DNA of 64,000 nt. Origin: Amphiscolops sp. MND2022. Lineage: Eukaryota. The stretch is taken from contig OZ076409.1 in assembly GCA_964187785.1 (NCBI GenBank), positions 68,760,001 through 68,824,000 of the forward strand, in the 5' to 3' direction. A program made the translations under genes and the position numbers. Positions 1 through 23,847 of the stretch are shown here, in pieces. The notes beneath the pieces were generated by a model. It ran no database searches. It was not told where the DNA came from and saw only the letters and a list, made by a program, of their open reading frames with translations. How positions within the stretch are numbered: position 1 is the first letter of the stretch; every line of letters starts with the position of its first letter.

Positions 1-836
1 TCCGGCGCCTCCGACAAAAAGGAGAAGAAACAGGTTAACTTTACAAATAGTGTCCCGCAAAAAACCTTAAAAGGACATCTGGAAGTGTCTACTGTTGAAA
101 CCAGCAGAACCTGATGATTTCCAAAATGCAGATAATTCGGAACTGGAAAGCTGAGACAAAATGTGTAGTTTTAATATGCCATCAAAGAAATAGGGTCTAA
201 TCTAACGCAATGTTTTTGTCCTTCAGCAAAACAAGGAGCTGGCCATCGCCAAAGTAGGACTGACGTGTGTAGTGTTCTTCGCAATTGCATGGACTCCTTA
301 CGCCATTGTCGGTCTCGTCGGCCAATTCAAGGGCCCCGAAAACATCACCCCCAGATGGTCCACCCTGCCAGCCCTGTTCGCCAAGTCCGCTTGTGTCTAC
401 AACGCCTACATCTACGGGTTCATGCACCCCAAATACCAGTAAGAGCACCTCTCCTATTCATTTTTTGGGGCGAAAACTGTCGAATCGTGCCAGATTGATA
501 GCTAATATTGTAATTAATGGCTCTGCTATGCTTCAACAAGTTGCTGTCATGCTTGACAAGGCACAAACTTCAACAAACAATTCATACAGCCACGATGCCT
601 ATGTACCACGAAATCGATAACAGTTTCATTGAAACATTAAAGCCCAGCTACTTAACTGATGAAGTTGGTTGTATCACAAAGAAAAAACTTGAAACTAGGA
701 CAGTTCTCGAGGACCTCACGAAGTAAATTTTTGTTTTTTTTTCAGATACCAGATCAAGAAGCGATTCCCCTGCTTCGCCACCCCAACCGAAGCATCGACG
801 ACTGCCGGTTCTGCGTCCCAGTCTCAAGGCAACTAA
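1..836 (+). CDS. Rhabdomeric-type (Gq/r-) opsin, 3' part (ICL3, TM6, TM7, C-tail); exons <1-33, 227-438, 746-836
   Basis: Manual spliced translation: SGASDKKEKKQ|QNKELAIAKVGLTCVVFFAIAWTPYAIVGLVGQFKGPENITPRWSTLPALFAKSACVYNAYIYGFMHPKY(Q)|YQIKKRFPCFATPTEASTTAGSASQSQGN*. Shows the TM6 WTPY motif, the TM7 retinal-binding Lys (AAG 383-385, in PALFAKS) and the HPK motif typical of r-opsins. GT-AG introns 34-226 and 439-745 keep the frame. Confidence 0.93.
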
Positions 837-1300
837 ACTCTCTCATCCACATCTCTCGCTAACCCTTAACTCTATCTGCAATTCTCAATGTAGCAATACA
901 TGTAATCTGATTCCGAATACAACCGACCAGCATGCCTGTCTGTCTACCTGCCAGTATCTCTCAAATCATATCAGAAACTAGAAGTTCCTCTAAAACTTGA
1001 ACATACAGAGTCTATAGTACGCTCGTCATAATTGCACACCGCTATTACATAAATTTGAAAAAAAAACAAGTATAAAAATGAAAAAAAATGAAAAATACGG
1101 AAAACAAAGAAATGACTAAACAGTGAATGAAAAAATACCGAGTGTGCAAATATGCGCAGCCTATTCTTATTCCTAATCTAAACTCTAGGGATTTTATTAT
1201 TCCTGATCCAAATATACGCAAATTGTAAAGGTGTCTTGCATGCTCAGTTCTTCTAAATGCTTGCTGATATTTTCATTGAATGCCGTGATTATATCCCATG

Positions 1301-1306
1301 AATAAA
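1301..1306 (+). promoter_or_regulatory. Candidate polyadenylation signal of the opsin
   Basis: First AATAAA seen downstream of the opsin stop codon (836). Confidence 0.45.
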
Positions 1307-1315
1307 AGCTGTAAC

Positions 1316-4300
1316 CTGAAGGTTGAGATGTTGAACTAGTTTGTCGCTGGTGTGAAGTTTGGCATCAGCGGCTATGGATTCGTGAGGTCTTCCTGTTTCT
1401 AGAAGCCGAGATAACCTGTCTATTTCTTCGTCGCGCACTTCAACCTAAAAATGAATAATTCATAAACTAGGTGAAAAATAATTGGAGGTTAAAATGAAAA
1501 TTGTCATAAATCGCTAATTAGGAAACCTCTACAGCGAAACACAACACTATGTAAATTATCAGCTTTGAAGCGTCTCAAAAATGCTGTTTCAAACTGTCAC
1601 GGCGTACTTTGCTGGTTATTATTCAAAATTTTGAACATGTAAATCGTGTAGACATTTTTATTAGTCTTCATATTATCCCATATTACACAATTTCATTCCG
1701 CTCGAAATAATTAAAACAAGACAGGCACGTCTCAAGTCGGCGCCCAGCTTGAGGCTCAAGATGAGCTTTTTAAAATTTGCTCAATATCTCAAATAAAAGC
1801 GTACCAAAAATACCCAAAGGAGTACCTTTCGCGCTCGGAAAATTTTCTGTAAATGAAAACCTCAAAGAAACATCAAATAGATCAAAGACCTTTTTCGAAA
1901 GTCATAGAGTAATAATAATCAAAGAATTTATCAGGGTGCACTGTATTTAATTTTTCATAATTTGAGTACAATATATGCTATATAAAATCGTAGAGAAATA
2001 TCAACATAGAGCACAAACTAAAAATTAAGATAGCCCCTGAGAAGGCTTCCTATAAGAACAGAGGCTTTTTGAGAGAAAACCTTTTGAGACAGTTTTTTTC
2101 TTTTCTTAGTTTTCTAGTGTGGTAGAGATTTGACTTTTATTCAACAGTTTCTATCTATCCAGCCAAGAAATTCTAATTTCTGAATAAGATCAATTAATTC
2201 ACCATTGCCAAAAATGTAAAGATCTGCAATTTAATGGTAGAAATTTGGGGAAAAAATCGTCCATTTCGCATATCAGTTCGTCAGTAGGTAAAACACACCA
2301 CTTGCACGGGGCATTGATGAGTATTATTGCACGAGAATCTAGCCTATCATTTTCTGTAGGGAGGTTCCAAATGTTTAGACTTCCATTTCTTGTTTGTCTG
2401 TTTTGAGTTCCAATGCTAAGAGGTTTGAAACCATTTCGTATCTGGTTAAGGGAAAACTTGAGGATCTCGTAGACATGATTCTCAAATACTGTTCCGATTT
2501 TTAGATCTTTGAATTTTTCGGTAACGCTGGTCCTGGTAGGAAGCCTGAAGGCTATCCTTATAACTTTTTAGGAAAATTTTGTGGAATTTGGTTTTCGGGC
2601 CCAGCCATACAGAAGAACGCCATACTGTACAAGAGGTGATACGAATGATCGAATATATTGTATTAATTGTTTTTCGTTCAACGTTGCCCTTAATTTGTAA
2701 TGGATTCCGCTATGCTGCGCTAGTTTGGCAGTACCATGAATGTGAGTGCCAAAAACCTTGAAGGGGGACCTTAGGTGAAAAAGAAAATATTCGGAAAAAA
2801 TCCCTAAGGGTTTTGGTCTCTAGTAGTTACGAAGATACGGTATAAACTATCAAAAACTGAAAGGTGAACACTATAAAAAACTGGGACCCTGTAGTTTTTG
2901 GGTTCCCTTCAGAACTAAGGCTTGAAGTCTGTAAAAAGTGTCACTTTTTGTTACAAAATCGCCGACTAAAAATGAGATGAGCTCCACGAATCATTTTGAT
3001 AAGCATGCAAAGATAAACATAATGTATAAATATCAAAGAATTCATTGCTACAATATTGAACCAGATGTTCGTCGAATGCATGGATATTTTGCGTCAAATA
3101 TTCCTCAGATAATTTAATTGTCAGTAAATAGATTTTTGTATCAGCTTTCTTGAATCGGCAGAGGCCTAAACAAATTCAAAAGTGGTTTCTTTCTAAATCT
3201 CAGAGAACATCTCAAATTCCCACGCCATGTAATAGAAATATGATTGAAACATCTTGTTTAACTAGGAAATTCCATTTAACTATTACAGTAAACAAGCAGG
3301 GACAGGCCCAAGTCGGCGCCATATCTAAGGCTCAAAAATAGCAAAAGGACTTCAAAGTGTCAAGTATTCTTTGACAAAACCCGAAAAACCCATAAGTTCA
3401 ACCGAATTGGCGCACCGGGGGACCCTTTCGGACTTTTAACATTCATTGTTGCAAAACATCAAAAAATTGAAGGGGGACCCTTTGGTGAAATTTTTTTGGA
3501 AAAAGTCTCACAATGCCGAAAAAAACTGACAGGGGGGCCCTTTGGGATTTTTCACCGTCCATTCTGTCGCAAAACATCAAAAAATTGAAGGGGGAACCTT
3601 TGGGGCAATTTTTTCTAAAGCCTCACAATGCCGAAAAAAACTGAAAAGGGGACCTTTTAGTCTCTCCCGGTATTGTATGTTACGCGAAAAAAGAGGATAG
3701 ACATTTTTGGTTCAGTTCGCTAGGCCAAATGATTCAATTTGGGACCATAACATTTCGTAGAACTTTTAAGAACTACTTTGGTCAGTTCGTGTGTATTGAA
3801 AAAAGTCACTATAATAGTCGCGTTTCACTTCATGAAGCGCCGACTAAAAAAACTCATTTACACGAACTGCGCAAAAACGCACAGATCAGTCGATGTGGCA
3901 GTTCAAGAGTTAAAGCGTTGATTTCCGAAGGAGGACTGGGTTCGATTCCTGCTAGGTTCAAATTTTGCAACAATTTATTTAAATTACAAAGCAGAAGGAA
4001 TCGAGTTCTACAAAAATCGATTTTTATCTTCTCAAGATATAACCCTGTAATGTGAAAAAAAAGCTTTTCAAAATTTATTACAATTGACTTGAGAAGTTTT
4101 CTCAGTATCATGGTCCAAATCCCCAATGTTCCGGGGAAGTTTCTGGGCTCATAAAATTTATCAAGAAACCCATACGTTCTGCTTTATTGGCAAAACATTA
4201 AAGAAAATTGGACGGCATGTTTCGAGATTTGAGTTATTTTCGCATTCATTGTTGTTGGATGTCTCGTAGCTCCCGTCCGTTTGGGTTTTACTTTTTTCAT

Positions 4301-7300
4301 GCATAGCTCCTGTCCGTTTGGGTTTTACTTTTTCCATGCATTTTCATGCATAGCTCCCATCCTTACCTTCAAATTTCTGAGAAATGGTGCGTCAGTGCTG
4401 CTCCGTAGGTAGTACAAAAGCTTTTTTCCAATATTAGAGTACTTCGCATCTTTCTAGGAAAGCAATTTAATTCTTTTTTCAGCCAATTGCGTTCTCTTGC
4501 GAGAAAGTGACAAGTTAGATTGATCAATGCAGTAAATATAGAATCACGATGCTTTCAAAGCATGCTTAACTATACTTGATTTCGCAAAATGTTTCCATGA
4601 AGTCTGATTACATTGCGTTTAATGGAAAGTTATTTCTGAATTGTAAAAAGCGTTTTTCAAGAAATTACGGTGTCGTTTTTTTGTCGATACGAACAAAACA
4701 ACAATGGCAATTCAGTTCTTGTTTTTATGAAACTGACAACACTGAATGCTCAATAGTCTCGTACTTAGGGCGTAAAAACTGTTTGATCGAACTTATGTAT
4801 AGGTTAGGGAATTGTAGTGAGATATCTAGGGTGATAGTGATAGACAGCCCCCATGGTTTGACTCATTCTTACTTAAGGGCTTCGAAAAGTTTTTTTCTAA
4901 CATTATAGAGCTCATAAAATGCAATGAAATGCGTAACAAAAAATTTGAGGCTTCATCCCCTCTTCATCAGATAAAAATTCAACATCCTTCCAGTAGATGA
5001 CAGATATTTTGCAAGTATCTTCCCGTGGTGAATGCAGATTGGCCACACCCTTTGAAACGTTTCCGCTTCTCATACTTGCATTCAAAGCATTTTTGCAGAA
5101 GTCGTCAAAATTGCGACATTCATTTCTAAGATCGCCGTCACTTGAAACGCTGACACTTTTCAGCCTGTCTTTTGAAAATGCGCGTTATTGCGTCAAATTG
5201 GAAAACACTTAAAATTGCCATTAAAAAAATTGCGATCCCACCTTTTTCCCATCCCTGTCGATAAACCACTTTGTTTCTAGTAGATACATCTACTACAATT
5301 GCTTATGGACGTTTCATTAATGTTCCTCACAAAATTGGTCTATAATTTTATCTCTCAACTAAATACAAAGTACCAAATGGGACCGTAGAATTACAGAAAT
5401 ACCTCTGCTTTGCGGAACCCTTGTGGAAATTGAGAAACTTATCCCAAAATACGATATAAAAAGATGGAATGAAATAGAAAAAGAACCCACATGCGATGAA
5501 AATAGATTTTCATTTCAAATTACCAAATGTACAACAATCTATCAGTTCAGGGAACTATATATAGTTCGGGCCGCTGGGACTTTGGCATGCAGTTACTCTT
5601 ACACTCACCTTCTTCTTGGTTCTGGTCCCGCGAGGCAAGGACTTTGAGTTGGTGCTAGAGTAAGTGGCGGACCCTCCGTACCTGCTAGAGGTGGGGGTTC
5701 CCAGGGATCGACCCGCTGTTCTACGACTACTCATCGTAATATAACCAGACTCCACTAACAATAATCCGAGAGAAGATCCACGGTAAGTGTGTGATACACT
5801 ACGTATAGCAGCTTTAAACCAAACGATAGAATTTAGTTTCGTAAAGAACGTGCAATAATAAATAGTCGAAAATTAATTTAAACATTAGATGGTTAAATTG
5901 TTTCATTTTAAAAGACCACATGCAAAGTAGTAGAACGCATAGAACACGCTCTGTTATCAATCGACTGAAAATACATCAGAAACGGAGCTGTTTTTGAATG
6001 AAGATTTAATTGGCAGCAAAATGAAAGCATCAGAAACGAAATCAGCGAGACAACTGAAAAATTGTTTTACCAACAGTTCGCTCTCGATGCATTGTTGTAT
6101 TATTGAACTGGTATGTGCAGAAGATTTAGATGCCATTATTTAATAACAACGATTAAAGAAAGAGTTAGAATAGAAGCTGATTTGAAAGAAGTGATAGAAA
6201 AATGCTTACTTGGTGTTTCAAACTCTCCACTTTTTGCAAGGCCAGATCTCGCTCGTTTTTGACAGACTCAAGTTCCTGTTGGACCGCTCCGATTCGTTCG
6301 TCTGCCACTACTAGCATATCGGCCATATACGCCTCGTCCGCTTTCGTAGCTACCTTGTCCCCTTCGCCGCGCTCCGACTTACCATGGGCCGGCCCCACTG
6401 CTACTGAACTTCCTAGATAAAGCGCAACTTTTGTAACAAAATACTTTAAAACATTTTCCTTGGAGATACTTCAAGCCAAAAAGGAGTTTTTATTCAGATC
6501 TTGCATTTCAGCTCAACAAAATATTGCAAGATCTCACAAAAAATGCGTCAAGCCCTAACTACGGTTAAACATCCCATGAGAAAAAGCTGAAACAAGGTTG
6601 TATTAATGATTGTGTCCACGACTATTTGAATTCACTATTTTGAATATCAGGTTTGAATATATGAGGTTCAAAACTGACAGTGGTTCAAGAATTGACAGTG
6701 AGTAACTCGAAACACAAGCTCAAAAGTTCTTCAATTTGAAGACTTCATACAAAAGTAATAGTGCTCAGCTCAGTATAATCAATCATACATGCACTAACCC
6801 TGAGTCATTTCGGATCTGGTGGTTTTCGTAGTCCCGGGTTCGGGGACAACGAAGCTGTCGATGTCCATTCTCTGTCTCCTCATTCCACCGCCGCCACTCT
6901 TCTTTTTCATTCCTGAAGAATTATACGTATTGATGAGATGCGTCTCACTGAAGATTATTGACATCTTGGGGGGAGTCCGAAATTTATTTCAGGCTGAGAG
7001 GTTTCAAATTTAGAACAAGATGTACAGTTTGATTCTGAAATTTCAGTTTCAGTTGATATTCTTAAACGACTCCCGATTTGGCCGAGTTGCACGAAATTGA
7101 ATGATCTGGTTTTAAAATCTAGTCAGAATCAAACTAGTTCAAAAATTGGGCCAATCTTTTCAGACAAATGATGACAGACACGTCTGGGAAAAAGGATATC
7201 CCACGATTGATACTTCAGCTGAAGGAAGAATACGTGAAACAATACTTCAATAGGTTTAATATTTCAACACTTGGATGGTTTGAAGATTTCAGATTCTATT

Positions 7301-9954
7301 TCCGAGCAAATACTTCGGAAATAAACAAGAACTAAATCACACAATATATCAACGGAAGCAAGTTACAAAAAGTACAATGTTGAATATAAAGGTTTCCTAA
7401 GTAGCAAAGAACAAAAGTTCAACAAGTTAACCTTGAAAAAGACTATCAACTTACATTACTCGAACGAATTGTCAATCAAAATATTTTGACTTTAATTCCA
7501 AACGAAAAACCGAACTCTCAGACATCGATTTCAAAATATTTATCGACCAGGCACGTTAAAATTTCTTCACTTTCGAAATCTGATAAATAGAGGTTTTCAA
7601 CGACTTCGGTATCACCAAAAATTGTGATTTGATATGGCCAGAAAACTGGTTTCACCTCAGAACTAAAGAAAATGTATCATCACTGCTTTAACCTTCCAAA
7701 AAATCAGATCAACTTATATTCACCGTTTGAGGTGTTGGCATGCACAATGGCAGTTGCAGTATTTGACCCACTGCACTTTTCTTGCAACTCCTTGATTTTG
7801 TCGTCTCTGGCTTTCACGTCTTTCTCTAATTGTTTAACCTTCAATGGAAATACACTATGCCAATTATTTCTCCAAATTGAACCTAATAAGCAACACAAAC
7901 TAGTCACTAACTTTTGCTAAATATTGGCTGTTGAGGAACTTCATGTCTGCATTTTCATGCTCCAGTTTTCTCAGCTGAAACAATTAAAAATTCATGATTT
8001 TTTCCAAGCTGACAACACTAACATCGTGCTGTGCTAAAGAAAGATTTCATGCCAATCAGATTGGACACTAATTTCAATTGGTACTAATTTTGGTTATAAC
8101 GAATCAAACCGTGCCTGATTTTTAGTTTCGTGGAACCAAAAATCATTATAGGCAACTTTTCAGTTCTAATGTTTGAATCAAGTTCGGTAACCGCTGTCCG
8201 TTATAAATGACAGCTGACTCAGCTGGTATTTCGGTATAGATCCGTTATATTGGTTATTCGTTATAAACGATGTTATCTGTGCCACGAGTTTTTAGGTAGA
8301 ATAGACGATAGATATGACCCACAGATTAGATTACTTTCATGTTGAATTCTTCTATCTAATCACATGAAAGCTATAATATGATCAATATTTTCAACAAGCA
8401 ATACAAGTAAAGCAGTAAGATTCACCTGGTCTTTGTTTTCCCTCACAGTTACGTCCATCTCATCGTTTTTAAGTAATAACTTTTTGTGTAATTCATTCTG
8501 TTCTCTAAGTAGGCGAGCATTCTCCAATGCATAGGGTTCCACAACATTTTCCACTTCTTTTGAGTCGTGAACAACCTAAATTACAACAGCAATTAAAGAA
8601 TAGCTCTGGTCCAACACTGTCTCCAGTCTCGAATTATTTTTTTGACCCCCCTATACTTAAAAACGTTAAATATACGAACTTCAAGCTTTTCAAGCTGTAG
8701 TTATTAAGTGAAATTTCTCCAAGTACAGTAAGTTCAACCTCAATTGAAAGGCATGCTAGAGTAAAAACAAGCCATGAAGGGCATAAATCGGCGCCCCGCT
8801 TTTTTCTTTTATAGTATTTTCTTTTATAGTACCCAAAAAACCCAAAGGGGGCCGAACTGCCGCGCCAGGCGCCCGCTAGCGCAGGCTCCTGGCGCGTTAA
8901 AAGGGGGGACGCTTTGGGATCCATTCTGTTGCAAAATATCAAAAAAATTGAAGGGATACCACCCCTTGGAGACATTTAAAAATTTTCGAAAAGTTACGTG
9001 AAGCGCCGACTAAAAATTCACATGTTTTGATCATCATTTCGATTCAAGTGCTTTTTAAGGTGAGGGGAAATGGAAACGAATATCGACTTGCAATAGAAGA
9101 GGAGTTATATCACGATGACAAAAGGAATGAAGCCAAGTAGTGAAGACAATTATTCAACATATACCGTACTCATTCGAAAAATAATCGCGTTCTTTTAACA
9201 AACCTCATTTGCTATAGCGGTAAATGTGTGTCGGATATTTTTTCGAATAAATATGGCACGTCTTTTCTGACCATTGATGAATTACAAACTGAATAATGAT
9301 TTCAAGTGAATATAAACAAAAAATGCACTTCGTACCGAAACGACGATTGGGGACCTGAAAAGTTTCGATATTACGCATCAATGTAACTAACGCTTATACC
9401 AGATCTAAGCAGGTACTTTTGCACCTAACAAAAGTGCCCAGTATCAATGCGTACTTGCAGTAATTTGGAAAAGTTTCATTTTGAAAAATATATCTCTTAG
9501 GACCATGAAATGGCTCTACTGATAGTTTAACATTGAAAACTTTCAATAAGCTATTTCATGAAATAACTAGCGCTTAACTTCAACGTTTAAAACATATTCA
9601 GCCTCTTTCGAGTAGGGTAAAATAGTATCTTGTATAAAAGGCCATTTCTCATATCCCGGCAGTCCTTAAAGTTCTCGAACCACTTATTTCATGATAAACT
9701 CACATTTGAAACTAACGAAAATGAATAATGCTAACTTTAGTGGCCTGTTGTTTAGATTTCTTTAAACTCTCTGTTGTCTGAACTAGGTCATTGAATAGTT
9801 TCTCAACAAGAGGCAGAGAGTCCACTCCTAAAGACTGCCTGTACCCCAATTGGTCAAGTCGCTTCCTTAGCGTCATGTACTTCTTGCCTTCCAGGCCTCC
9901 TAGGGTGGCCAGACCGCCAGTGGGGTCAGCGGCCGAGGTCACGGCCGGGGTCAT
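1316..9954 (-). CDS. CEP135: Centrosomal protein 135 (CEP135/Bld10), N-terminal part; exons 9736-9954, 8426-8575, 7912-7974, 7724-7838, 6799-6912, 6210-6412, 1316-1444; continues beyond the left edge
   Basis: Motifs match the CEP135 N-terminal coiled coil in order: KKYMTLRKRLDQLGYRQSLGVDSLPLVEKLFNDLVQTTESLK, EPYALENARLLREQNELH, LRKLEHENADMKFLNSQY, RRQRMDID, VADERI, VEVRDEEIDRLSRLLETGR..KLVQHLNLQ. All junctions are GT-AG and in phase; the last visible exon ends in a donor with no stop. Confidence 0.92.
3291..3850 (-). mobile_element. Helentron/DINE-1-like non-autonomous element, family A
   Basis: Element strand reads TTTTT-AGTCGGCGC (sub-TIR) ... internal GGGTCCCCC tandem units ... GCGCCGACT, GC hairpin, CTTGTT. 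No TSD. Confidence 0.8.
5609..5734 (-). CDS. Putative alternative first coding exon inside a CEP135 intron (MSSRRTAG...RTKKK)
   Basis: GC-rich island in an AT-rich intron. ATG at 5734, 42 open codons, strong phase-0 donor AAG|GTGAGT compatible with the phase-0 acceptor of exon 1316-1444. Confidence 0.45.
8766..9016 (-). mobile_element. Family A, internally deleted copy
   Basis: AACAAGCC..TCGGCGCC left end and GCGCCGACTAAAAA right end. Confidence 0.65.
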
Positions 9955-10135
9955 GATGGGGAGGATGGTCTTATAAGGGTTTCCAATTAGTCATGAAACA
10001 CATCTAAAATTCAGAAATAGAAATTCCAGTTCCACTGTAACTAAAATGAAGAGGGAAAACGTTTTTCCAAACGGGTTCTACAGGAACATTGGAGTCATGA
10101 CTAAAAAAGGGTTTTAAGGACGACTTCCGTTGTTT

Positions 10136-10930
10136 AAAATAGGCCCCTCTGGGGCACACTTTGTTTCTGCTTTTAGGCTTTCATCTTCAATAATAGAAGC
10201 ATATCTTAATCATTTATCCTCGACAATGATTTCGTCCTCAAACGAGGACAGCAATTTTTTCACAATCAATAAAAAAGTACGAAACGCAAAAAGCATATAG
10301 GATAACGAAAATTTGTTTTTCTTATCAACAATCTATTGGACTATCTGGAGCGATGTGTTATTTGTGTCAATAGAGTTTGTTTTCCGAACCACCGGCAAAA
10401 AGGTAACTGGGAAAAAGTGAAAATTTGCAAAAAAAATACTTCTGAGAAAATCAACTTTTTCTCAATAACACAGCAACTTTTGCCAAGTTACTGTCACACA
10501 TATACAGCGCAAAATTAATCACTACCAGTTTACACAGCCTTCAATTCGTATCGGACTAGAGTAAATATAACTACTAAGCGTAGACGAAGTTTCGCATTCG
10601 CATTTGAATGCAGGCAAAGCTGTCGGCGAACGAATAATTAACACCCATTCGCTTCATTTCAATAACTCGGCCTACGAAAGCATAATTACCAACATTCGCT
10701 TGCTTCATCTCAATGACGTCAGCATACGAAAGCATAAATACCAAGCGCTCGCTTCATCGCACAGAGAATTGAATTGTCGTCGGCAGCCTGAGAAATTTAA
10801 TTCTCACGCTTATAGTCACTGCCGAACAAAATATCTGAATTTTTCAGTATTGCGATGAGAATTTTACTGAAAAAAAAGTGGACATCTTGAGGTTTCAATA
10901 ATATTCCTACTATCGCAGAAATAGTTAAAA
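10136..10930 (-). mobile_element. Helentron/DINE-1-like element, family C (with ~300-bp internal insert)
   Basis: AAAATAGGCCCC-nnn-GGGGC hairpin end; sub-TIRs TTTCTGC / GCAGAAAT; homologous to the copies at 16770, 27275, 29888 and 38277. Confidence 0.75.
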
Positions 10931-11590
10931 AACAAGCCGGGACCGGCCCAAGTCGGCGCCATATCCAAGGCTCAAAAATAGCAAAAAGACTTCCAGGTGT
11001 CAAGTACTCTTTTACAGTACTCGAAAATCGAAATTTTTTGAAAAAAAAATTTCGAAAAAATTACATACTCAAAAAAATGGACCGAGTGGCGCGCCGGGGC
11101 TGGCGCGCTAAAGTCTCACAATGCCGAAAAACTGAAAGGGGGGACCCTTTGTGGTTTTTCAACATCCATTCTGTCGCAAAACATGAAAAAATTGAAGAAA
11201 ACAAAAATTTTCATTTTCGGGAAAAAATCTCACAATGCCGAAAAAAAACTGAAAGGGGGGACCCTTTGGGATTTTTCAACATCCATTCGGTCGCAAAACA
11301 TCAAAAAAAATGCAGGGGGGACCCTTTGGGGAAAATTTTTCTTTCGAAAAAAAGTCTCGCAGTGCCGAAAAAAAAATGAAAGGGGGGAGTCTTTGGTCTC
11401 GCCCGGTATGGTATGTTACGCGGAAAAACAGGAAAAACCTTTTTGGTTCAGTTCGCTAGACCAAATAGTGCATTTTGATGCAATAATATTTTGTAGAACT
11501 TTTGTAGAACTATTTTGGTCAGTTCGTGTGGATAGAAAAAAAAGTCATTATAATAGTCGCGTTTCACTTCATGAAGCGCCGACTAAAAAA
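10931..11590 (-). mobile_element. Family A, full copy inserted in the A-run at the end of a family-C element
   Basis: Intact ends. The empty site is visible in the paralogous segment at 17290-17300. Confidence 0.85.
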
Positions 11591-11902
11591 CGTTATCTAT
11601 TAAGAATAAACTTTGCACGATGTTATCCAAAAGAAATCAACATTTGCGATTAGATCGCACAATTTCTTGAACTCAACTAAGTTGAGCGATGATAAAATGT
11701 AACATTTAGCATTTCATTTGGAGTGTCAATCTATCATTACGTACATAAAACATTTTCCAATCAGTCATCATATTGGCGTTCATTAAGTAAGAATGGGACA
11801 ATCGCCAAGGCAGAATCACGATGACGTCACTTCGGATTAAAAGCCCCTTAGCGAAATGAAGGCAAAATGACGTCATTGAAACGAAATAAAAGGTTTTCCC
11901 AG

Positions 11903-14900
11903 CTAGCGACATCTTGAGCTCTGTGAATTTTTGCCGCCCGAACTCTTAGAGTCACCCACAGAATTAGAAGTTGCAGCTGACCCAGAAGTCGATGGTTGCG
12001 AACTGGATTGACCCGAAGTCTTTTTGTTTTTGCATTTAGTAGAGGTGCAAGTGCTTCCGCCCCCGGAGCTGCTCGAAGTCGAGGCGGCCATGTTAGATGA
12101 TCCTGAGGATTGAGAAGGCAACAGAGGCATTGATAAATTCTTCATCAGCCGACTCTCGTCGTTCTTGAAGAAACGTTCGGCCAGTGTCACGAAAGGGTTT
12201 CTCTCCACTTTGTCGATTGGACAGATACGGGAGTCGTCTAAAAAGAAAGACATCTTATCAGCTTGCTACCTGCTCGTAGTACTCAACATCATGAACAAAA
12301 CTGAATACAATCGAGGCATCATCAACTTGTTTAATTTCACGTTACAACTTCGGAAATTAGAATCATTATTATCTCGATTAGAATCATGAGGGATTTTTGA
12401 TTTACTTGGAATAAACTGCGAATAGTAGAAAAGTTCAAATTCCTGGAGTAAAACTCACCATAAACTACAGCAGTAAAGAACTGGTCGATGGTGCGTTTGT
12501 CTTTTGTGATCTTCTCGTGCAGGAATTTGTCGATGAATGTTTTTGTAGAGTATGCGAAAACAGAAGGGTAGCCCAGTAAGTTGTTTTTAGCCAACAGCTT
12601 GTACAAGTCCAGAATATACAAAGGCACACACCGGCCGACGAAAAGCCAGTCGATGATTTCCACATTCTTGTCACTCGATGTTGACACCAAGGCCTCGAGG
12701 ACGCGTGATATGAAGTTGTCGACTTGTTTTTGGTTCTCTGACGACAATATGATGTCATTTAGAGACACTGTGACCTGCATCTCCAACTTCACGTACATCT
12801 GAGTGGCTTCGTTTGTGAATAGCGTCAGGTCTTCCATGTGTAGATCGTGGTAGCCCCCTGGGAAAGAAACAACTTTGAAGCAGATGAAGCAAAAATCGCT
12901 TAAATTAAAACGGGTCAAAACATTCGAAGGAATCAGCTTCAATTGCAGATACAGTATTCCAAATCAGAAATCGAAAGACGTTCATAATCGTGGTTCAGTC
13001 AGCTTCGAGGTAACAAAACTTGACAGTAAAAACTAGACACAAAGCAAGCTGGGCTTCTCAACATCATCGCCAACAAACACTCTGGCAAGCGTACAATCAA
13101 ATCGACTTCAAACCCCCCCCCCCCCCCAAAAAAAAACAAGACGGGAACGTCCCAAGTCGGCGCCATATCTTAGGCTCAAAAATATTCAAGGAACAACTAT
13201 TGGAAAAATTTGGAAAAAAAATTTTTTCAAAAAAAAATTTTGACTTTTTTTCGAAAAAAAGTATTTTTTAGGTCGCACAATGCCGAAAAACTCATTAAAA
13301 AATTTATGGTTTAGTGCGGGATTCGAACCCACGCTCTCCGGCTGGGTCGAAGATGAAAGATGAACAAATATGAAAGATGAACAAAAATTGTAAGAAAAGT
13401 GGACCACTCAGAGTGAGATTGTCAACTGAAAAAAAAAAACTACTCACTGTAAGAGTCGGGCTTTTTTCCTTAAGGGAAAAGGCGCCGACTAAAAACTAGA
13501 AAAGCAGTTTACGTTTGAGCAATAATTTTCAACAATAGTTCAACAATTTTCAACACAACTCACATTTTAGTAACCAATCATCTGAATTATAGTTAAACTT
13601 GTAAACTGCAAATGATTGGCCTTGACCACTGATTGGGCACACAGAACTATCCAATTTAGTAGAATTTGACAGTTTTGATCGACTTTTACACTCTGTTAAC
13701 ACTATCTGAACTTCCCACGCAAAAAAATTGATGAATCATGCGAAGTAATAGTTGTATGAGCACAATGGCAAGAACTAACTATTTATATAGTTCTCATTTT
13801 GTTTCTCTCGTTCCATTATGGCTCTCATCTTGCTGAGGATTTTAGCAGACACTCTATCATAGCTTGAGTCATTTTGAGCAAACACGGCGCTATTTTCGTC
13901 CACATGGGGCATATACAAACGCCGGAATAGGAAGACAAATGTTTGGAAGGCCATCGAGGACTTGTCCCAAGGGTCCTCGCCATTTTGAATCATCTCGTGA
14001 TGCAGAATATTCAGACAGAATCTGGTAAGAAGGTAATATATGACCTCTCGCTTGCAATATTGTTTCCTCATGGCGTGATCAAAACAGGCTATTGGCACGA
14101 AGAACTTTTCGTCGTCGAAATTTCTCCAGCACAGATAATAGGCATCAGGCGCGTATGGTTTCTTTTCCTTGAACAGCTTTTTGAGCCAATACGCCACTTC
14201 AAACATCAACACAGTGATTTTCAACTGGCAGATGTATTCTTCACACTTCCCGATAATATTAGTTAGCTTTCGGTGCTCCACTTGAATAAAAATTTCTAAA
14301 GCTTCTCGGAAAGCGTCTTTGGTTGCTAAATGCTGATTGGCCGATTCTGATGAATCTACAGTTGACGAGGAAGTAGAAGCAGCAGCTGTCAACAAAAAGA
14401 TTCGTTGAAAACATTCTGAAGATAAATCTGATTAGCACAGAAAATAGAAGGTATGATTCGAAAACTCAAATAAAAGCCGCGTCTTGTAAACCAGATATTT
14501 GTAACGAACAAAAAAGAACAGCAAGGGTCCACCAACTTTTGCGTAGCAGCTGGTGAAACTAAAATTTACTATTTCGGTGAGTCGTTTTCTTAAGCAAAAC
14601 AGCAAATTCAACAAAAAGCGCAGTGGCACGGTGGTATTTTCCGTTTTTTTTCGGCGCTTTCTGGAAAAAGTATTCCATAATGGCTGTTTTTTCCTCCAGC
14701 TTCCCACAGAACGGTCAACTTTTATCTCTATGAAGCACATGGAGCAAGTCTAAAATCCATCTAATTAGGGTTTTTCGGCACTGTGCCTTAGGTATACCGT
14801 TGATTTTTTGCTTTCAGTTGCGTAAAAGCTTTTATTAGCCTGAGAGGTACCGTAATTGAGATTTCAGGCACTGAGATTCTGCAGAATTTGAAAAAGCTCT

Positions 14901-17900
14901 TCAGCCTTGTGACAATAATTCTTTGCTTTTTCGGGCCTTAAACGGAGCGCCGACTTGATCCGCCTCCGGCTTTTCTCTCGAAAAATACTAAAAACACATA
15001 CGAAAAACTGATCAATGCTATCATGTGAAGTTCTGAAAAACATAAGTGTAGCATGTTGAATAGAGAATAATAACAACCTTGCAAAGAATTGTTGTGATGT
15101 CTGGCCTCGATGGCATCCCAGGCCCGAGCGAGTCTAGGCGAAGGTAGTTGGTGTTTGATGTAGTCGTACAGATAGATATGGTTCTCAACGAACTTAGGGG
15201 TTAGTTTGGGGTTTATGAACCAGTGCAGGAATCTAAAAGGCTGAAGATTTGTTCCAAATCCGAGTGGAATGCGCGGATGCTCGTACTGAAAGATATCGTT
15301 TGATATGTCCAACATGCTCATCTCGCACTCCGGCTTTGGCAAGTTTAAGTAATGCTTAGCTGAAACAACAACCAATCAGTTAATCAGTTAAACAAATTAA
15401 CATTAAAATACAATGATAATGAAGCATTATTCAACTAAATTTCAGCATTACCAAGTGTTTCATGTATAAGAGGATGTGATTTGAGGAACCAGACGAGTAA
15501 CCAGACACATTTGCGCAGACTCTTCCACACTTCTGTGCGGTCTACTGTGAGTAAAAAGTCGTGCAGCATTATCCCGTAGTGACAGCAACACTCCACCAAT
15601 GGTAGCCAAGTACCTGAAAAAATAATATGACATCGTATCGTTATCATGGAGAGTTCATGCTGTAACTTAAGGTCCTCGACTCATACAGCGGCAAGTTTTT
15701 CTGTTTCTTGTCAGACTAAAGACACCACATTGAATGGTCCACTTTGTGAACAGACTTTCGCAAGCATGAGCAAGAGCGTTCGAACCCTGAGCAGGACTAC
15801 TTTTTCATGTTTGCAAGTCCAGATACTCCCGGCTTTGAGATTTTGATGTTTTCGAGTCTTGGGAGCCCTCTTCGGATATTTTTGGCACGGTGAGATTTGA
15901 GAACTTTTCCTAACAACGCCATGAGCATATTTTAAACAAATTGTACTTTTAAGCCTTAAGCAACGCGGCCCTGTAATTTACTCAATTGTTATAAGAGTTT
16001 CTTGCTAATCTGATTCAAAATTGGGAATCCATAAATATATATACAAGGAACTTAACTTTTCCGTCAGTGAAATTAAGTGAAAGAACTCTGTTTAGAGCAT
16101 AAAATTACAGTATAGCGCAAAGAACGTAGAGAAAACGCGACTTAGAGCTTAATTTATGCTTTCTCATAAATGGGATATCAACGGAAATTAAAAATGTCTC
16201 AAGACCAACCTGATCGTTTCTCCGAGTGTGTATCGTAGACGGATTGTACCAAGTTCTGACAGTGCACTTGAATGATGTTAGCGAACTCTGTAAGCATGAC
16301 AACGTTAAACGGCCTCTTTTTAGCGTCCATGGCTGGCATGTTGTAGTCATTGTAGGGATCCAACAGCTTCGAGTGCTCCAATACCTCCTGCGTGTCGAAC
16401 CACCTAACACTGTGGCAAGACAGTTTCGAGGGATCGAAATTGCGGGCAAGCTCACCTAAATGTCTGAGTGTTAAATAATAGAAAAATCTCACGAGAAGCT
16501 CTCAAGAGAATACAAGACCTTTTGGTGAAAACGATACTTTGAATTTTACGAATCCAGCTTTTATGTTTTGCAGCTTCTATATTCATAGTGCATCTGCTTA
16601 AAATAACAACATCGAGGTTAAAATTTTCAAAAAAATCCCAATTCGATCTGTGAGAAAACCTTGAGAAAATGCTTGATTACGTAATGTTTCAAGAAAGAAA
16701 GAGCTTCGAAGCTATCGTTTAACTATAATTTCACAGAAAAGTGGGCTACATGATGTCATGACATCATAGAATAGGCCCCTGCGGGCACAGTATTGTTTCT
16801 GCGTTTAGGCTTTCATGTTCAATAATAGAAACATATCTGGAATAACTAAACACTCCTGTTTAATCATTATTTTAGCGCACAATTATTCAATGTACCAGTT
16901 TACACCGCCTTTAATTCTTCTCGGACTGAAGAAAATATAACTACTAAGCGTAGACGAAGTTTCGCATTCGCATTTGAATGCAGGCGAAGCTCTCGGCGAA
17001 CGAATAATTAACACCCATTCGCTTCATCTCAATAACTCGGCCTACGAAAGCATATTTACCAACATTCGCTCGCTTCATCTCGATGAATTCGGCATACGAA
17101 TGCATAATTACCACTCTCTCGTTCCATCGCACGAGAAACGAATTGTTGAGGGCAGCTTGAGAAATTTGAATCTCACGCTTAAACTCACTGCCGAACAAAA
17201 TATCTGAATTTTTCAGAATCACAAAAATTTTACAGAAAAAAAGTGGACATCTTGAGGTTTCAATAATATTCCTACTATCGTAGAAATAATTAAAAAAACG
17301 TTATCTATCAAGAATAAACTTTGCACGATGTTATCCAAAAGAAATCAACATTTGCGATTAGATCGCACAATTTCTTGAACTCAACTAAGTCGAGCGATGA
17401 TAAAATGTAACATTTAGCATTTCATTTGGAGTGCCAATCTATCATTACGTACATAAAACATTTTCCAATCAGTCATCATATTGGCGTTCATTAAGTAAGA
17501 ATGGGACAATCACCAAGGCAGAATCACGATGACGTCACTTCGGATTAAAAGCCCCTGCGCAAAACGAGAGACCTGAAACCTTTTTAGTCGGCGCTTAATG
17601 ATGTGAAACGCGACTATCTACGAAATTGTCTGGTCCCAAATTGAAGCATTTGGCCTCGAACCAAAAAGGATTTTTCAACTTTTTTTCGCGTAACATACAA
17701 TACCGGGAGAGACTAAAGGGTCCTCCATTTCATTTTTTTTGGCATTGACTTTTTTTCGAAAAAAATTCCTCCAAAGGCGCCCCCTTCAATTTTTTGATGT
17801 TTTGCGACAGAATGGATGTTGAAAAATCCCAAAGGGTCCCCCTTTCAGTTTTTTTCGGCATTGTGAGACTTTTTATAAAAAAATTCACCAAAGTGTCCAT

Positions 17901-20293
17901 CCTTCAATTTTTCGATGTTTTGCAACAATGGATGTTAAAAAATGCGAAAGGGTCCCCGGGTATTAAAAATCATATCGGATATAACGTTTCTTGGATAAAT
18001 TTTCAGTGTTATTTCGGCATTGTGAGACTTTTTAAAGAAAATTTGTTAAAGTCTTCAAGGGGTCCCACTTCAATTTTTCAATATTTTGCAACAGAATGGA
18101 TGTTAAAAAATCCGAAAAGGCGCGCCAATTCGGTCCAGTTTTTGGGTATTGTGAAAGAGAATACTTTGACCCTTTGAAGTCATTTTGCTATTTTTGTGCC
18201 TTAAATATGGCGTCGACAGGGCCGGTCCCGGCTTGTTGTCAATTGCATCTGCTTTCTCCTAGTTTTCAATGTCATGGGGTGGGTTCTCACACAATCGAAC
18301 TTTTAACAAATGATTGCGATTTGGTACCGCGAATTTCCATAGTTCATTATTTATGTAGTCTATGTCACAAAGTTAAGCGAAGGACAATGAATTTTTGTTT
18401 GGTATTCAGTTACCTAAATGGAAACAGAGAGTCTTCTGAAACTGGTCCAGCATGGTGTCGTAGCAGATGTTGGTCATGAAGTCTTCGTCACTGAGATAGT
18501 TCGGGGTATCCTTCGACTCAAGTTGAGGTATCTTCAAAGTTTTCTTCACTTTGTGCACATTGGTCACAAAGCGACGGTTGTCCATAACACTAACGATTAG
18601 TTTCGTCAATACTAAGTTCTCGTAGTTCGCGAAGTTGGCATCATGCAGAGATTTGAAAGGTTGGAATTGAGAAAGCCGTGTTCCGTGTCTCAGGTCATTG
18701 TCTGTAACCGCTGTGTTTTCTTGGAGAGAAACTAAGGCACTAAAAAAACATACCACATCATATTCACATCTGTACATTAGGAGTGACACTAAAATCCGAG
18801 GGCACAAAATATCCATCCAAACAATTGATTCCTGATTTACAACTATTTTTAGCATGCACATTTTGTATTTCGTTTTTTTTTCGTTGTTTTTCTCAAAATC
18901 ACAACGTATGTGAATGGTCCACTTTTCAACAGAGTTTGTTCACGCCGCAAGTAGTTAGGATGGACCCTTCCCAAGGAGACGGCCGTCGGTTCGATGCCTG
19001 CCGAAGATGAAACATCTACTTGCAAACCTTGACGTATCAAAGTGTCCCCTTTGTTTGTGTTTTTCGGCACGGCGCGACTTTTCATAATTTCATTTCACCA
19101 AAGGATCCCGGATTTGGCTTTTCCCGTAACTTTCAAAAAGACGTTTTTCAAGCCTAATGAAAAATTTTTAAATTATTTTGGGTATTTCAGGATGTTTTCA
19201 TTAGAAGAGAAGTGTTCGAGGCCACAGGTCGCCCCTTCGGATATTTTTGCTACTCTGAAAGTTACGAAATTTTCCACACTGAACAATTCTATGGGACTGC
19301 GCTTTTTGACGTTTAAGCGGGCGCCGACTTTAAACGGTCCCGTCTTCTTTCTTTGAACTGTAATTGAAACATCAATATTACTTTACTAATGTATTGTGTA
19401 ATTGATTGTTTTACAACATCCATTACATATTGTTACTTTAGAGCAAAAAATTTCAATATATTAATTGGCTCAGCACAGTAATCGATAACATTCATTAAAA
19501 TAGTTTTGAAACTCCGTGCTCAGCAGTCTGGTAAATCAGGAACATGGTTTATTACCGACGATGACGTTGACACGTAACTTCACTACATAACAGACTTACT
19601 TGTCTAGCATGTCTATGGAAGCCCAATACGCCTTTTCAGATCTATAGACCGATTTCTCAATTTCAGCAGTAGAACCGAGTTCATCTGCATCATCAGTGGG
19701 GGAGCTCGAGCTTTGTGTAGAACTGGAGTTTTCGCGTTCGTAAGGTTCCGACATTAGACACATGAGGCTCTTCAACTCTCCGCTTTTGAGCTTTATCATG
19801 GATTCTTTCAAGCTAGGTTGACTTTTATTGATGTTTTCAAACCACTGAGTGAGAGTCTCCAATCCACTGATTTCGTGACCTTTGCCGTTTTTACCACTAC
19901 AAATCACCTAAATTGCAAAAACTTACATCAAATATGTTGACCTTCAATACTCGGAATTTGCCAAGTTGATTTCCAGACTACCTCTATCCAGTCAAAGTGA
20001 AATACCACATACAGTCTTACCTGAATGGATAACTTGTTGTCTCCGTTGGAATACCCGTTGCTGTTTTCAGAGGACTGAGAGAGATCTTCGATGAGTTTCT
20101 GGATAGTGTCCACGTGCCCAAATTCTATCTTTTCGCTGAACTCTCCATTGGCCATCACACACTGGACTTCGTTGGGCTTGCTGGAATTGGTCGTGACTAC
20201 AAATGGAACCCCAGCCGCAACCACCACCATTTTATCATTCATTACCTTTAAACCCAACATATTCATGCTTGTCTTACCAAAAGAAGCCGACAT
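11903..20293 (-). CDS. Uncharacterised ~978-aa protein; exons 20021-20293, 19600-19907, 18414-18739, 16210-16455, 15452-15613, 15078-15359, 13780-14385, 12459-12857, 11903-12237
   Basis: Nine ORF fragments join through canonical GT-AG sites with matching phases (0,2,1,1,1,1,1,1) into a 2937-nt frame from ATG to TAG. Ser/Gly-rich C-terminal tail. No family recognised. Confidence 0.85.
13135..13496 (-). mobile_element. Family A copy with a tRNA-like B box
   Basis: Both family-A ends present; CGTGGGTTCGAATCCCGC on the element strand at ~13316-13333. Confidence 0.75.
16770..17298 (-). mobile_element. Family C copy
   Basis: Same termini and core as 10136-10930. Confidence 0.75.
17581..18237 (+). 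mobile_element. Family A copy
   Basis: TTTTTAGTCGGCGC ... GCCGGTCCCGGCTTGTT. Confidence 0.8.
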
Positions 20294-20324
20294 GACAAAA
20301 ACGAAAATAAATTAAAAACCGATT

Positions 20325-23300
20325 GAGCAAATATTGATTTCTCAAGGCGGAAAAAATGACAACATAACATGACTTGAATGACGGTAACAATAGTTTTCCG
20401 GTTGATAACATTTAAAATGGGAACAATGTGAAGATTTCAGTTCAAAATTCAGACTCTCCAGGGAACCAACAAAAATGAATTTTACCAACCAGTAAGCATT
20501 TTAGATAGACAGGCGTACTTCCTTTCTGATCAGTGCTGATTACGTTATTTACAAGATAAATTTAAACAAACCACAAACGCGTCGGAAGATTTTTAGTCGG
20601 CGATTTCGTTAGAAAACGCATACTATAGTGGTGACATTTTTCAACCGAAGCGAACTGACAGATTCTGTAAATCTATAACTTTCTCATTCGTTTCCATACA
20701 CCGCCAACTCAATTGCCGCTTTGTCTAAAGGTTAGCCCAAGTGTCTGCAAGGTGACGCCGGTTGGGTAGCAGGAGTTTAGGGTTCGAATACCGAGCTGGT
20801 CCAAATGTTTTTCCTACGTTTGCAAAGATATTTTAGGTTAGAGGGTCCCCTCTTTGGGTTTTCCGACACTGCAATTTTTCTGGAAAGTTTATTTCACAAA
20901 GGAGTCCCCTTAGGTTTTCATTTTTTTCAGCAAGGAAAAGAATTTTCAGACCTTAAACGGTCTCCTCTAGGTTTTTCGGCACAATGTGACGATATAACGA
21001 AAAAAATCGAACTTCGGTTTCCATGTTTTCAGTTGAGAAAAAGCTTTTCTGGTCTCAAAAATTCGCTTTGGATACTTTTGCTATTGTCTCGTGGATGAGA
21101 GGTTTAATAAATGTCCTTGAGTGTTCAAAAGACTGCTCTTTTGAGCCTTAAGCGGGGCGCTTCCGGCTTGTTTGAAGTATGAAATGACTCAATTCCGAAA
21201 AGTAATTCTCTCAATTCTCAAAGTAAATTTCTCAATTCTGAAGTGTTGATTTTTGAACTTTGCAAAAAAGTTTAACCCTAAAGGGAGGAGGAAATTTCCG
21301 AAGCCATCCTAAAATCTGGTGCATAAACTTTAAACCGCAATATCTAAACTATTCATTTCCGACAAAAGATTAATACAGCGTTAGAAAGAAGACAATCACG
21401 GATTTTAAATTGATTTTAGAACTGCTGGGCTGGGCGACAATGGCTCCGGATTTTGAGCCAAAACATTGCACATCTCGTGTCTCTGATCGCATTTCAGCAA
21501 GTCGCAAAACAGGCAAGAGCCGCTTCGACCCAACCTTGATACCAGTGGGACAAAGTGGCCACAAGTTGATACCACCAGTGGTTTTCTATACCATACGGTC
21601 AGCCTCCAGTTTGCAGAAACTAATTAGTACGAAATCGTGCCATCGTCCATTTAGGGTTCAACCCAGTAGGTTTCATTTGAAGAATAATCAAGTTTCACTA
21701 ACAAAAAGAACAATAAACGATGGCATTTCAGACACAATCATGTGAAGCTAGTGGGTAAAAGGAGCACTATCAAGTGTTAGCTAAGAACGGTCCAGCTAAG
21801 AAGTGGTAGCAAACGGTCAAGTCGGCGCCCACTCAAGGAAAAGCAAGCCGAGAACGGCCAAAGTCGGCGCTATATCTAAGGCTCAAAATTGTAAAAGGGG
21901 GACCCTTCGGGCTTTGTGAAACTCCAGCTGGTTGCAAAATATGAAAAAAAAATTGAAGGGGAGCCCTTTGGGGACTTGAAAAAATTTCCCAAAAAAGATT
22001 TTAAAAATGAACAGTGTCACAGTGCCGAAAAATGTAAAAGGGGGACCCTTTGGGATTTTTTGACATCCCGTTCGAAGGAAACTCGGCCCTCGCAGGGAAA
22101 GGACGAGCAAATATTGATTTCTCAAGGCGGAAAAAATGACAACATAACATGACTTGAATGACGGTAACAATAGTTTTCCGGTTGATAACATTTAAAATGG
22201 GAACAATGTGAAGATTTCAGTTCAAAATTCAGACTCTCCAGGGAACCAACAAAAATGAATTTTACCAACCAGTAAGCATTTTAGATAGACAGGCGTACTT
22301 CCTTTCTGATCAGTGCTGATTACGTTATTTACAAGATAAATTTAAACAAACCACAAACGCGTCGGAAGATTTTTAGTCGGCGATTTCGTTAGAAAACGCA
22401 TACTATAGTGGTGACATTTTTCAACCGAAGCGAACTGACAGATTCTGTAAATCTATAACTTTCTCATTCGTTTCCATACACCGCCAACTCAATTGCCGCT
22501 TTGTCTAAAGGTTAGCCCAAGTGTCTGCAAGGTGACGCCGGTTGGGTAGCAGGAGTTTAGGGTTCGAATACCGAGCTGGTCCAAATGTTTTTCCTACGTT
22601 TGCAAAGATATTTTAGGTTAGAGGGTCCCCTCTTTGGGTTTTCCGACACTGCAATTTTTCTGGAAAGTTTATTTCACAAAGGAGTCCCCTTAGGTTTTCA
22701 TTTTTTTCAGCAAGGAAAAGAATTTTCAGACCTTAAACGGTCTCCTCTAGGTTTTTCGGCACAATGTGACGATATAACGAAAAAAATCGAACTTCGGTTT
22801 CCATGTTTTCAGTTGAGAAAAAGCTTTTCTGGTCTCAAAAATTCGCTTTGGATACTTTTGCTATTGTCTCGTGGATGAGAGTTTTAATAAATGTCCTTGA
22901 GTGTTCAAAAGACTGCTCTTTTGAGCCTTAAGCGGGGCGCTTCCGGCTTGTTTGAAGTATGAAATGACTCAATTCCGAAAATAATTCTCTCAATTCTCAA
23001 AGTAAATTTCTCAATTCTGAAGTGTTGATTTTTGAACTTTTTAAAAAAGTTTAACCCTAAAGGGAGGAGGAAATTTCCGAAGCCATACTAAAATCTGGTG
23101 CATAAACTTTAAACCGCAATATCTAAACTATTCATTTCCGACAAAAGATTAATACAGCGTTAGAAAGAAGACAATCACGGATTTTAAATTGATTTTAGAA
23201 CTGCTGGGCTGGGCGACAATGGCTCCGGATTTTGAGCCAAAACATTGCACATCTCGTGTCTCTGATCGCATTTCAGCAAGTCTCAAAACAGGCAAGAGCC

Positions 23301-23847
23301 GCTTCGACCCAACCTTGATACCAGTGGGACAAAGTGGCCACAAGTTGATACCACCAGTGGTTTTCTATACCATACGGTCAGCCTCCAGTTTGCAGAAACT
23401 AATTAGTACGAAATCGTGCCATCGTCCATTTAGGGTTCAACCCAGTAGGTTTCATTTGAAGAATAATCAAGTTTCACTAACAAAAAGAACAATAAACGAT
23501 GGCATTTCAGACACAATCATGTGAAGCTAGTGGGTAAAAGGAGCACTATCAAGTGTTAGCTAAGAACGGTCCAGCTAAGAAATGGTAGCAAACGGTCAAG
23601 TCGGCGCCCACTCAAGGAAAAGCAAGCCGAGAACGGCCAAAGTCGGCGCTATATCTTAGGCTCAAAATTGTAAAAGGGGGACCCTTCGGGCTTTGTGAAA
23701 CTCCAGCTGGTTGCAAAATATGAAAAAAAATTGAAGGGGAGCCCTTTGGGGACTTGAAAAAATTTCCCAAAAAAGATTTTAAAAATGAACAGTGTCACAG
23801 TGCCGAAAAATGTAAAAGGGGGACCCTTTGGGATTTTTTGACATCCA
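20325..23847. repeat. Recent tandem duplication: 20325-22068 and 22105-23847, joined by a 36-bp filler
   Basis: Near-identical 1.74-kb units with about ten differences seen by eye; duplicated ORFs 20805/22585 and 21410/23189. Confidence 0.95.

Follow-up and report, generated by a model that had tools for sequence, protein, structure and literature searches.

An opsin gene probably nested on the opposite strand within an intron of CEP135 in acoels

Introduction

Whether an opsin gene is carried within an intron of CEP135, and what such an arrangement would mean for the expression of either gene, is the question raised by the left end of a 64,000-nucleotide stretch of the genome of the acoel Amphiscolops sp. 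MND2022 (assembly GCA_964187785.1, contig OZ076409.1, positions 68,760,001 to 68,824,000 of the forward strand), referred to below, at its full length, as the window. The 3' part of an opsin gene occupies the plus strand at this end, and the first seven coding exons of CEP135 follow on the minus strand (Table 1). An original prediction, made from the sequence alone, held that the opsin sits inside a CEP135 intron and that the two genes could be co-regulated or mutually exclusive. The analysis presented here suggests that the opsin is very likely nested in CEP135 intron 7; the best explanation as a whole, in which the opsin is a passenger in that intron and each gene is transcribed on its own, in different cells from the other, is probable and is held with somewhat less confidence.

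The opsin gene at the left edge of the window

Three plus-strand exons, separated by introns at 34-226 and 439-745 that both follow the GT..AG rule, together hold 111 codons and a stop codon, and about 221 earlier opsin codons lie outside the window, to its left. The encoded piece is identical at 108 of 111 positions to residues 222-332 of the 332-residue protein P0001, at 94 of 106 positions to a 'rhodopsin-like' protein of Convolutriloba macropyga (RefSeq XP_075262378-81, 89%) and at 89 of 111 positions to a 'melanopsin-like' protein of Symsagittifera roscoffensis (XP_063724870/71/73, 80%). These convolutid acoels are the closest named relatives, and their opsins have Lys296, the tripeptide HPK and the loop sequence in common with the window opsin. 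The middle exon matches positions 196-260 of the Pfam family 7tm_1 (E 1e-6, slightly below the curated cut-off), and full protein P0001, 97% identical to the window opsin, matches the family with an E of 5e-53, identifying it as a class A seven-helix receptor. Residues 4-68 of the exon query correspond to residues 247-311 of bovine rhodopsin (chain 1f88_A) at equal length and without gaps, placing the lysine encoded at 383-385 at position 296 in helix 7, through which the window opsin is predicted to bind retinal.

The claim that three plus-strand exons encode transmembrane helices 6 and 7 (TM6-TM7) of an opsin with the retinal-binding lysine is confirmed by the gene model and the bovine rhodopsin alignment, except that both helices and the lysine lie in the middle exon and are not spread over the three. 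The opsin had also been said to escape the track of open reading frames (ORFs). A default listing of positions 1-1500 returns five ORFs, none of them in the TM6-TM7 frame, and a simple ORF track would therefore miss the gene. A scan of prokaryote genomes for the opsin confirmed none of 45 pattern matches. A predicted structure of P0001, built from a three-row alignment, had a mean predicted local distance difference test (pLDDT) score of 41 and was not used.

The first coding exons of CEP135

The seven minus-strand exons are joined by introns that all follow the GT..AG rule and amount to 993 nucleotides, or 331 codons, with the frame open and no stop codon. In orthologues, which are 1,139-1,279 residues long, the aligned part is residues 1-277 (1-287 in one sponge protein), with 42-45% identity over about 280 residues of the conserved N-terminal region to five orthologues (E 1e-65 to 1e-79); the seven exons cover about a quarter of an orthologue. 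Two statements of the original prediction hold accordingly: exon 1316-1444 ends in a donor, with the GT at 1315, and roughly 330 codons precede it. A profile was built from the 59 proteins of at least 1,000 residues among 120 listed of 1,053 matches. Its seven significant matches in the window correspond to the seven exons, and profile positions 279-1165 have no significant match in any frame of the window. The conserved motif, found in 57 of the 59 full-length proteins, ends at a median residue of 276 in proteins with a median length of 1,139.

Between the opsin stop and CEP135 exon 7 (837 to 1315), and inside the opsin introns, no further CEP135 exon was found by profile or by inspection of acceptors. 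None of the 32 sequences inspected (at least 8 open codons) behind the 49 phase-0 acceptors in 1-1315 resembles a CEP135 exon 8. A 19-bit tblastn piece at 1295-1215 was rejected as CEP135, being out of frame, without an acceptor and without a profile score, and is attributed to chance. The exon-7 donor, with its GT at 1315-1314, scores within the range of the eight other donors of the opsin and CEP135.

A stretch in intron 6 is likely, judging from its sequence, to be an alternative first exon giving a CEP135 without the N-terminal 288 residues. It is one of only four such stretches on both strands of the window, and has no Pfam or Atlas match. If the acceptor upstream at 5754 were used, the same stretch would instead be a frame-breaking cassette exon.

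Some 50 bases upstream of the CEP135 start codon is a pyrimidine-rich AG (10004-9955, minus strand), which may serve as the acceptor to which either a non-coding first exon or a trans-spliced leader is joined. Gene calls P0130 and P0132 from another acoel run unbroken through CEP135 exons 5 and 6, intron 5 (6798-6413) appearing to be absent there.

The same layout in a second acoel

A metagenome scan with P0001 confirmed one of 97 pattern matches, a contig of 1,845 bases (L001) that holds a whole opsin gene. A TATATAA at 192 precedes the start codon at 298, the stop codon is at 1477, and the coding sequence is interrupted by three introns, each 61-64 bases long. The encoded protein shares 77-84% of its residues with the three other full-length opsins. 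Over 100 codons, synonymous divergence (dS) between L001 and the window opsin is about 1.9, near synonymous saturation, and nonsynonymous divergence (dN) is 0.054; from the high dS, L001 comes from a distinct and distant species. On the strand opposite to its opsin, positions 1844-1770 encode the 3' end of CEP135 exon 7, with 20 of 25 residues identical. The distance from the end of this exon (CAG/GT) to the opsin stop is 292 bases in L001 compared with 479 in the window. On the exon side of the GT, 48 of 60 bases are identical between the two, compared with 18 of 60 beyond it, and the stretch between opsin and CEP135 aligns between the two species no better than shuffles do, 39 of 300 of which reach its score. 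The AATAAA signals of the window have no counterpart in L001, and the tails that would be read through beyond exon 7 differ in length and sequence (8 codons in the window, 20 in L001). No CEP135 sequence is found by profile in L001 1-1769.

A comparison with a related species, which the original prediction had called for, therefore finds the order of opsin and CEP135, their strands, exon 7 and its donor all kept. This match argues against an assembly join as the source of the adjacency, which must be old among these acoels. The opsin intron at 34-226, in the third cytoplasmic loop, is missing from L001 (1081-1130) and has thus been gained or lost within these acoels. A search for Rfam families gave no match in window positions 1-12000 or in L001.

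Probable nesting of the opsin in CEP135 intron 7

The opsin is very likely nested. No exon of the host falls within the span of the inner gene, neither in positions 1-1315 of the window nor anywhere in the whole opsin gene of L001. Nesting also predicts host exons on both sides, joined by splicing; in both species CEP135 sequence is seen on one side of the opsin, where its donor is conserved. Should CEP135 continue, the L001 opsin would lie complete with its promoter in one intron of at least 1,769 bases, compared with opsin introns of about 60 bases. Among 59 short CEP135 entries from elsewhere, one (P0066) reads through at the exon-7 boundary, which points to an old intron position. The candidate alternative first exon in intron 6 offers an indirect argument, as it would make little sense if only one exon followed it.

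Several observations weigh against this interpretation. The downstream CEP135 exon is seen in neither the window nor L001, and the exon-7 donor stands at the weak end of its range, 3.8% of minus-strand GT sites scoring as high. The conserved GT may instead start a conserved valine codon, given that orthologues have valine or isoleucine next. Reading on past exon 7 in the window soon meets a stop, and an AATAAA follows some 90 bases later. Protein searches gave no acoel CEP135 recognisable as full-length: there is none among the 120 listed of 1,053 matches, none of 27 candidates in another search scored, and a further search gave three short gene calls on genomic contigs, one of which, on a 110,115-base contig, matches window positions 6168-6398; the annotated opsins of two convolutids are present in the same collection. 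The prediction that the opsin lies in a CEP135 intron therefore stands in part: positions 837-1315 are free of CEP135 exons, and the donor and layout recur in L001, but the remaining CEP135 exons are seen in neither species.

In a rival explanation, CEP135 would be truncated or split in convolutids, its N-terminal quarter ending just after exon 7, with the two genes plain tail-to-tail neighbours. In favour of this are the read-through stop after 8 codons and the AATAAA at 1198-1193, the lack of a full-length acoel form in the searches just described, and the existence of a natural short form of CEP135 in humans (PMC6724517). However, the tail and the poly(A) signal are not conserved in L001, whereas the GT is, and protein searches that return no full-length acoel form are weak evidence of its absence. 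Residue 233, where the human short form stops, marks the preceding exon boundary, and 32 of the 59 short entries stop at that boundary too. In this human form, CEP135mini, the intron after residue 233 is read through (PMC6724517). It corresponds to intron 6 of the window (1445-6209), where the open read-through is short; the acoel opsin lies one intron further on, and a mini form in acoels is hypothetical. The candidate first exon at 5734-5609 would need more than one exon after it. Acoels, moreover, move by a multiciliated epidermis (PMC8097308), for which the full protein would, from general knowledge, be expected to be needed. A truncated CEP135 is consequently regarded as unlikely, and nesting in intron 7 remains the preferred interpretation.

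Class of the opsin

The best solved-structure matches of P0001 are invertebrate rhodopsins, with 188 bits for 2z73 (which, with 2ziy and 4ww3, is taken here to be a squid rhodopsin) and 165 bits for Kumopsin1 6i9k (presumably from a jumping spider), compared with 138 bits for bovine rhodopsin and 91-104 bits for cone opsins. An HPK or HPR tripeptide after helix 7 is diagnostic of rhabdomeric (Gq-type) opsins, which canonically have tyrosine at position 113 and a glutamate counterion at 181. The HPK at 425-433 aligns to the HPK of the best-matching solved rhodopsin, and tyrosine occupies the 113-equivalent site, in a region outside the window, in all four full-length convolutid relatives (P0001, P0003, P0004 and L001). 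Lys296, this tyrosine, DRY and HPK all align between the acoel opsin and the squid and Kumopsin1 structures. The acoel opsin differs from these solved rhodopsins in a short C-terminal tail and at two sites. NPxxY is replaced by NAYIY, with alanine for the proline, in the window (401-415) and in all four relatives, and the site aligned to counterion Glu180 of 2z73 (Glu180/181) is aspartate in all four, an acidic and non-canonical residue.

NAxxY in helix 7 is shared with RGR-opsins (Guehmann et al. 2022, PMC9368030); compared with these, the rest of the acoel protein matches rhabdomeric-type rhodopsins and keeps HPK. The motif is reported not to abolish signalling by itself, a cattle rhodopsin NAxxY mutant showing 141% activity and NAxxY being native in MT2 (PMC9368030). 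The acoel opsin is thus likely to be of rhabdomeric type. Without a canonical NPxxY it does not qualify as a canonical r-opsin, and the term r-type is applied to it here on grounds of similarity. The class is, however, based on best matches and motifs and not on a tree, and an Atlas feature search, which confirms an opsin, ranks vertebrate visual opsins first and does not discriminate the class. Xenacoelomorph r-opsins and rhabdomeric-type signalling have been described by Abalde and Jondelius 2025 (PMC12104807), in the main text of which a term search finds no mention of NPxxY, the counterion, introns or synteny.

Proposed expression and regulation of the two genes

CEP135 is very probably spliced from 1316 across the whole opsin to a predicted exon 8, giving a full-length protein of about 1,100-1,300 residues. 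As a nested passenger, the opsin would have a promoter of its own, of which L001 shows a TATA-like box, and would be active in a few photosensory neurons, where it would bind retinal via Lys296 and signal by a Gq/TRP route; from general knowledge, CEP135 would be made mainly in dividing cells and in cells building basal bodies. With the genes in opposite orientation, the CEP135 pre-mRNA would not carry the splice and poly(A) signals of the opsin, and expression in different cell types would prevent collisions of polymerases. The layout would then persist because neither gene is harmed and because it is hard to break up, and not through regulation. The part of this explanation that concerns cell types is borrowed from other animals, which counts against it. 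In the acoel Isodiametra, an opsin and TRPC are reported to be co-expressed in neurons near the brain (PMC8097308). In L001 1-300, a search for the palindromic homeodomain-type motif of fly rhodopsin promoters gave no match.

Use of the AATAAA at 1301-1306 may cause the opsin mRNA to end at, or just inside, CEP135 exon 7. This signal sits 10 bases before that exon, and the mRNA may end antisense over the CEP135 donor.

Nested structures contain nearly 10% of Drosophila genes, and the inner gene is on the opposite strand in 71% of cases (Lee and Chang 2013, PMC3814207), with a median expression correlation of 0.019 for nested pairs compared with 0.174 for neighbours (PMC3814207), and selection against co-expression of nested genes has been reported (Assis 2016, PMC5174743). 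Separate expression is therefore the default expectation for a nested pair, and no special mechanism is needed. The earlier suggestion that the genes could be co-regulated or mutually exclusive is retained only to that extent: separate expression is expected as the default, and co-regulation is unsupported.

A more elaborate form of separation would be a switch, in which strong transcription of the opsin in photoreceptor neurons blocks the CEP135 polymerase in intron 7, lowers the amount of full-length CEP135, favours short forms and helps to keep these cells free of cilia. Distant species share the layout, and the opsin stop is no more than 292-479 bases from the CEP135 donor; acoel photoreceptors are described as having neither cilia nor rhabdomeres (PMC12104807); the short human CEP135 opposes centriole duplication (PMC6724517); and interference between nested genes has been reported in Drosophila (PMC5174743). 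However, no conserved sequence lies between opsin and CEP135 when L001 and the window are compared, a nested layout can be conserved without function, and mature neurons, from general knowledge, normally need little new CEP135 anyway. The switch is accordingly considered improbable, a shade more so than truncation of CEP135. The same slight probability attaches to its extended version, in which the switch would be combined with an r-type pigment whose NAxxY and aspartate counterion give altered photochemistry, and which would explain the cilia-free acoel photoreceptors.

Co-regulation through enhancers shared in ciliated light-sensing cells is less probable again. In its favour are the physical overlap of the two genes and the general importance of basal-body genes for ciliary photoreceptors, but the best matches of the opsin are invertebrate rhabdomeric-type rhodopsins, core ciliary phototransduction genes are reported not to have been found in Xenacoelomorpha (PMC12104807), and nested pairs in Drosophila are less correlated than neighbours, as noted above. 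Equally improbable is an interleaved arrangement, in which some CEP135 exons of the window species would lie inside opsin 5' introns beyond the left edge of the window. Introns are longer in this species, which also has the opsin intron that L001 lacks, suggesting that gene structure has changed; against this, the whole L001 opsin lies in one stretch without CEP135 sequence, and the movement of an exon across the exons of another gene is rare. An assembly join, by far the least credible alternative, is largely refuted by the presence of the same order, strands and exon on a separate contig from a different species. The passenger explanation is thus preferred.

Other features of the window

The other recognised genes, at 11900-64000, are all on the minus strand, the only strand whose frames were submitted to Pfam. 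Interspersed repeats (3283-3851, 10506-11848 and many others) make up about 29% of the window and have as many as 28 local matches; none were detected in 1-3282. Positions 21373-22149 and 23152-23794 have the appearance of a near-identical duplicate.

Table 1. Features of the window, with positions counted from its first nucleotide
Feature	Position	Strand	Evidence or remark
Opsin coding exon, 3' part only (third cytoplasmic loop)	1..33	+	Open at window edge; P0001 residues 222-232; donor CAG/GTTAAC
Opsin exon with TM6-TM7, Lys296 codon (383-385), NAYIY (401-415) and HPK (425-433)	227..438	+	Pfam, protein and structure matches
Opsin last coding exon (helix 8 and tail), TAA stop 834-836	746..836	+	Intron position before the exon also in L001
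AATAAA, sole canonical poly(A) signal between opsin stop and CEP135 exon	1301..1306	+	Without counterpart in L001
Probable CEP135 intron 7 with the 3' half of the opsin, extending past the left window edge	1..1315	-	GT 1315-1314 conserved in L001; no CEP135 match within
CEP135 read-through, 8 codons and stop, if the donor is unused	1289..1315	-	Then AATAAA 1198-1193; neither conserved in L001
CEP135 coding exon 7, 129 nt, phase 0 at both ends	1316..1444	-	Orthologue residues 235-277; 20 of 25 residues identical to L001 piece
Candidate alternative CEP135 first exon, intron 6	5609..5734	-	ATG, 42 open codons, GC 0.57, strong donor AAG/GTGAGT in phase with exon 7
CEP135 coding exon 6	6210..6412	-	Human CEP135mini reads through at the 3' end of this exon
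CEP135 coding exon 5	6799..6912	-	Gene model
CEP135 coding exon 4	7724..7838	-	Gene model
CEP135 coding exon 3	7912..7974	-	Gene model
CEP135 coding exon 2	8426..8575	-	Gene model
CEP135 first coding exon, ATG at 9954	9736..9954	-	1,053 matches, the named ones CEP135
Large multi-exon gene	~11900-20300	-	No Pfam match
DZF/zinc-finger gene	~29400-49900	-	Pfam
HAD hydrolase	52969-53941	-	Pfam
Sybindin-family gene	55338-55850	-	Pfam
Fritz/WDPCP gene, second cilium gene	62518-64000	-	Pfam

Biological meaning

The opsin in CEP135 is most likely an ordinary opposite-strand nested gene, the specific pair being new and the kind common. As with opposite-strand nested genes of Drosophila, a small, multi-exon and probably narrowly expressed gene lies in an intron of a long, conserved one; the acoel pair differs in being known from DNA of one side of the host only. 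Literature searched for nested opsins (five papers, judged by title and the opening of the abstract), for CEP135 with opsins (no paper) and for CEP135 with acoels (20 listed of 388, none naming CEP135) did not yield this pair. For annotators, the locus is a case of an opsin with short exons hidden in CEP135, where RNA data that are unstranded, or that count introns, could mix the signals of both genes. The changes to NAxxY and Asp181 make the pigment worth a spectral and G-protein assay. Were it true that opsin transcription shuts off full-length CEP135, photoreceptor identity would be tied directly to the loss of cilia and the locus would be far more important. The layout of opsin and CEP135 is, in addition, a synteny marker by which this opsin can be traced across acoels, whose opsin classes are disputed.

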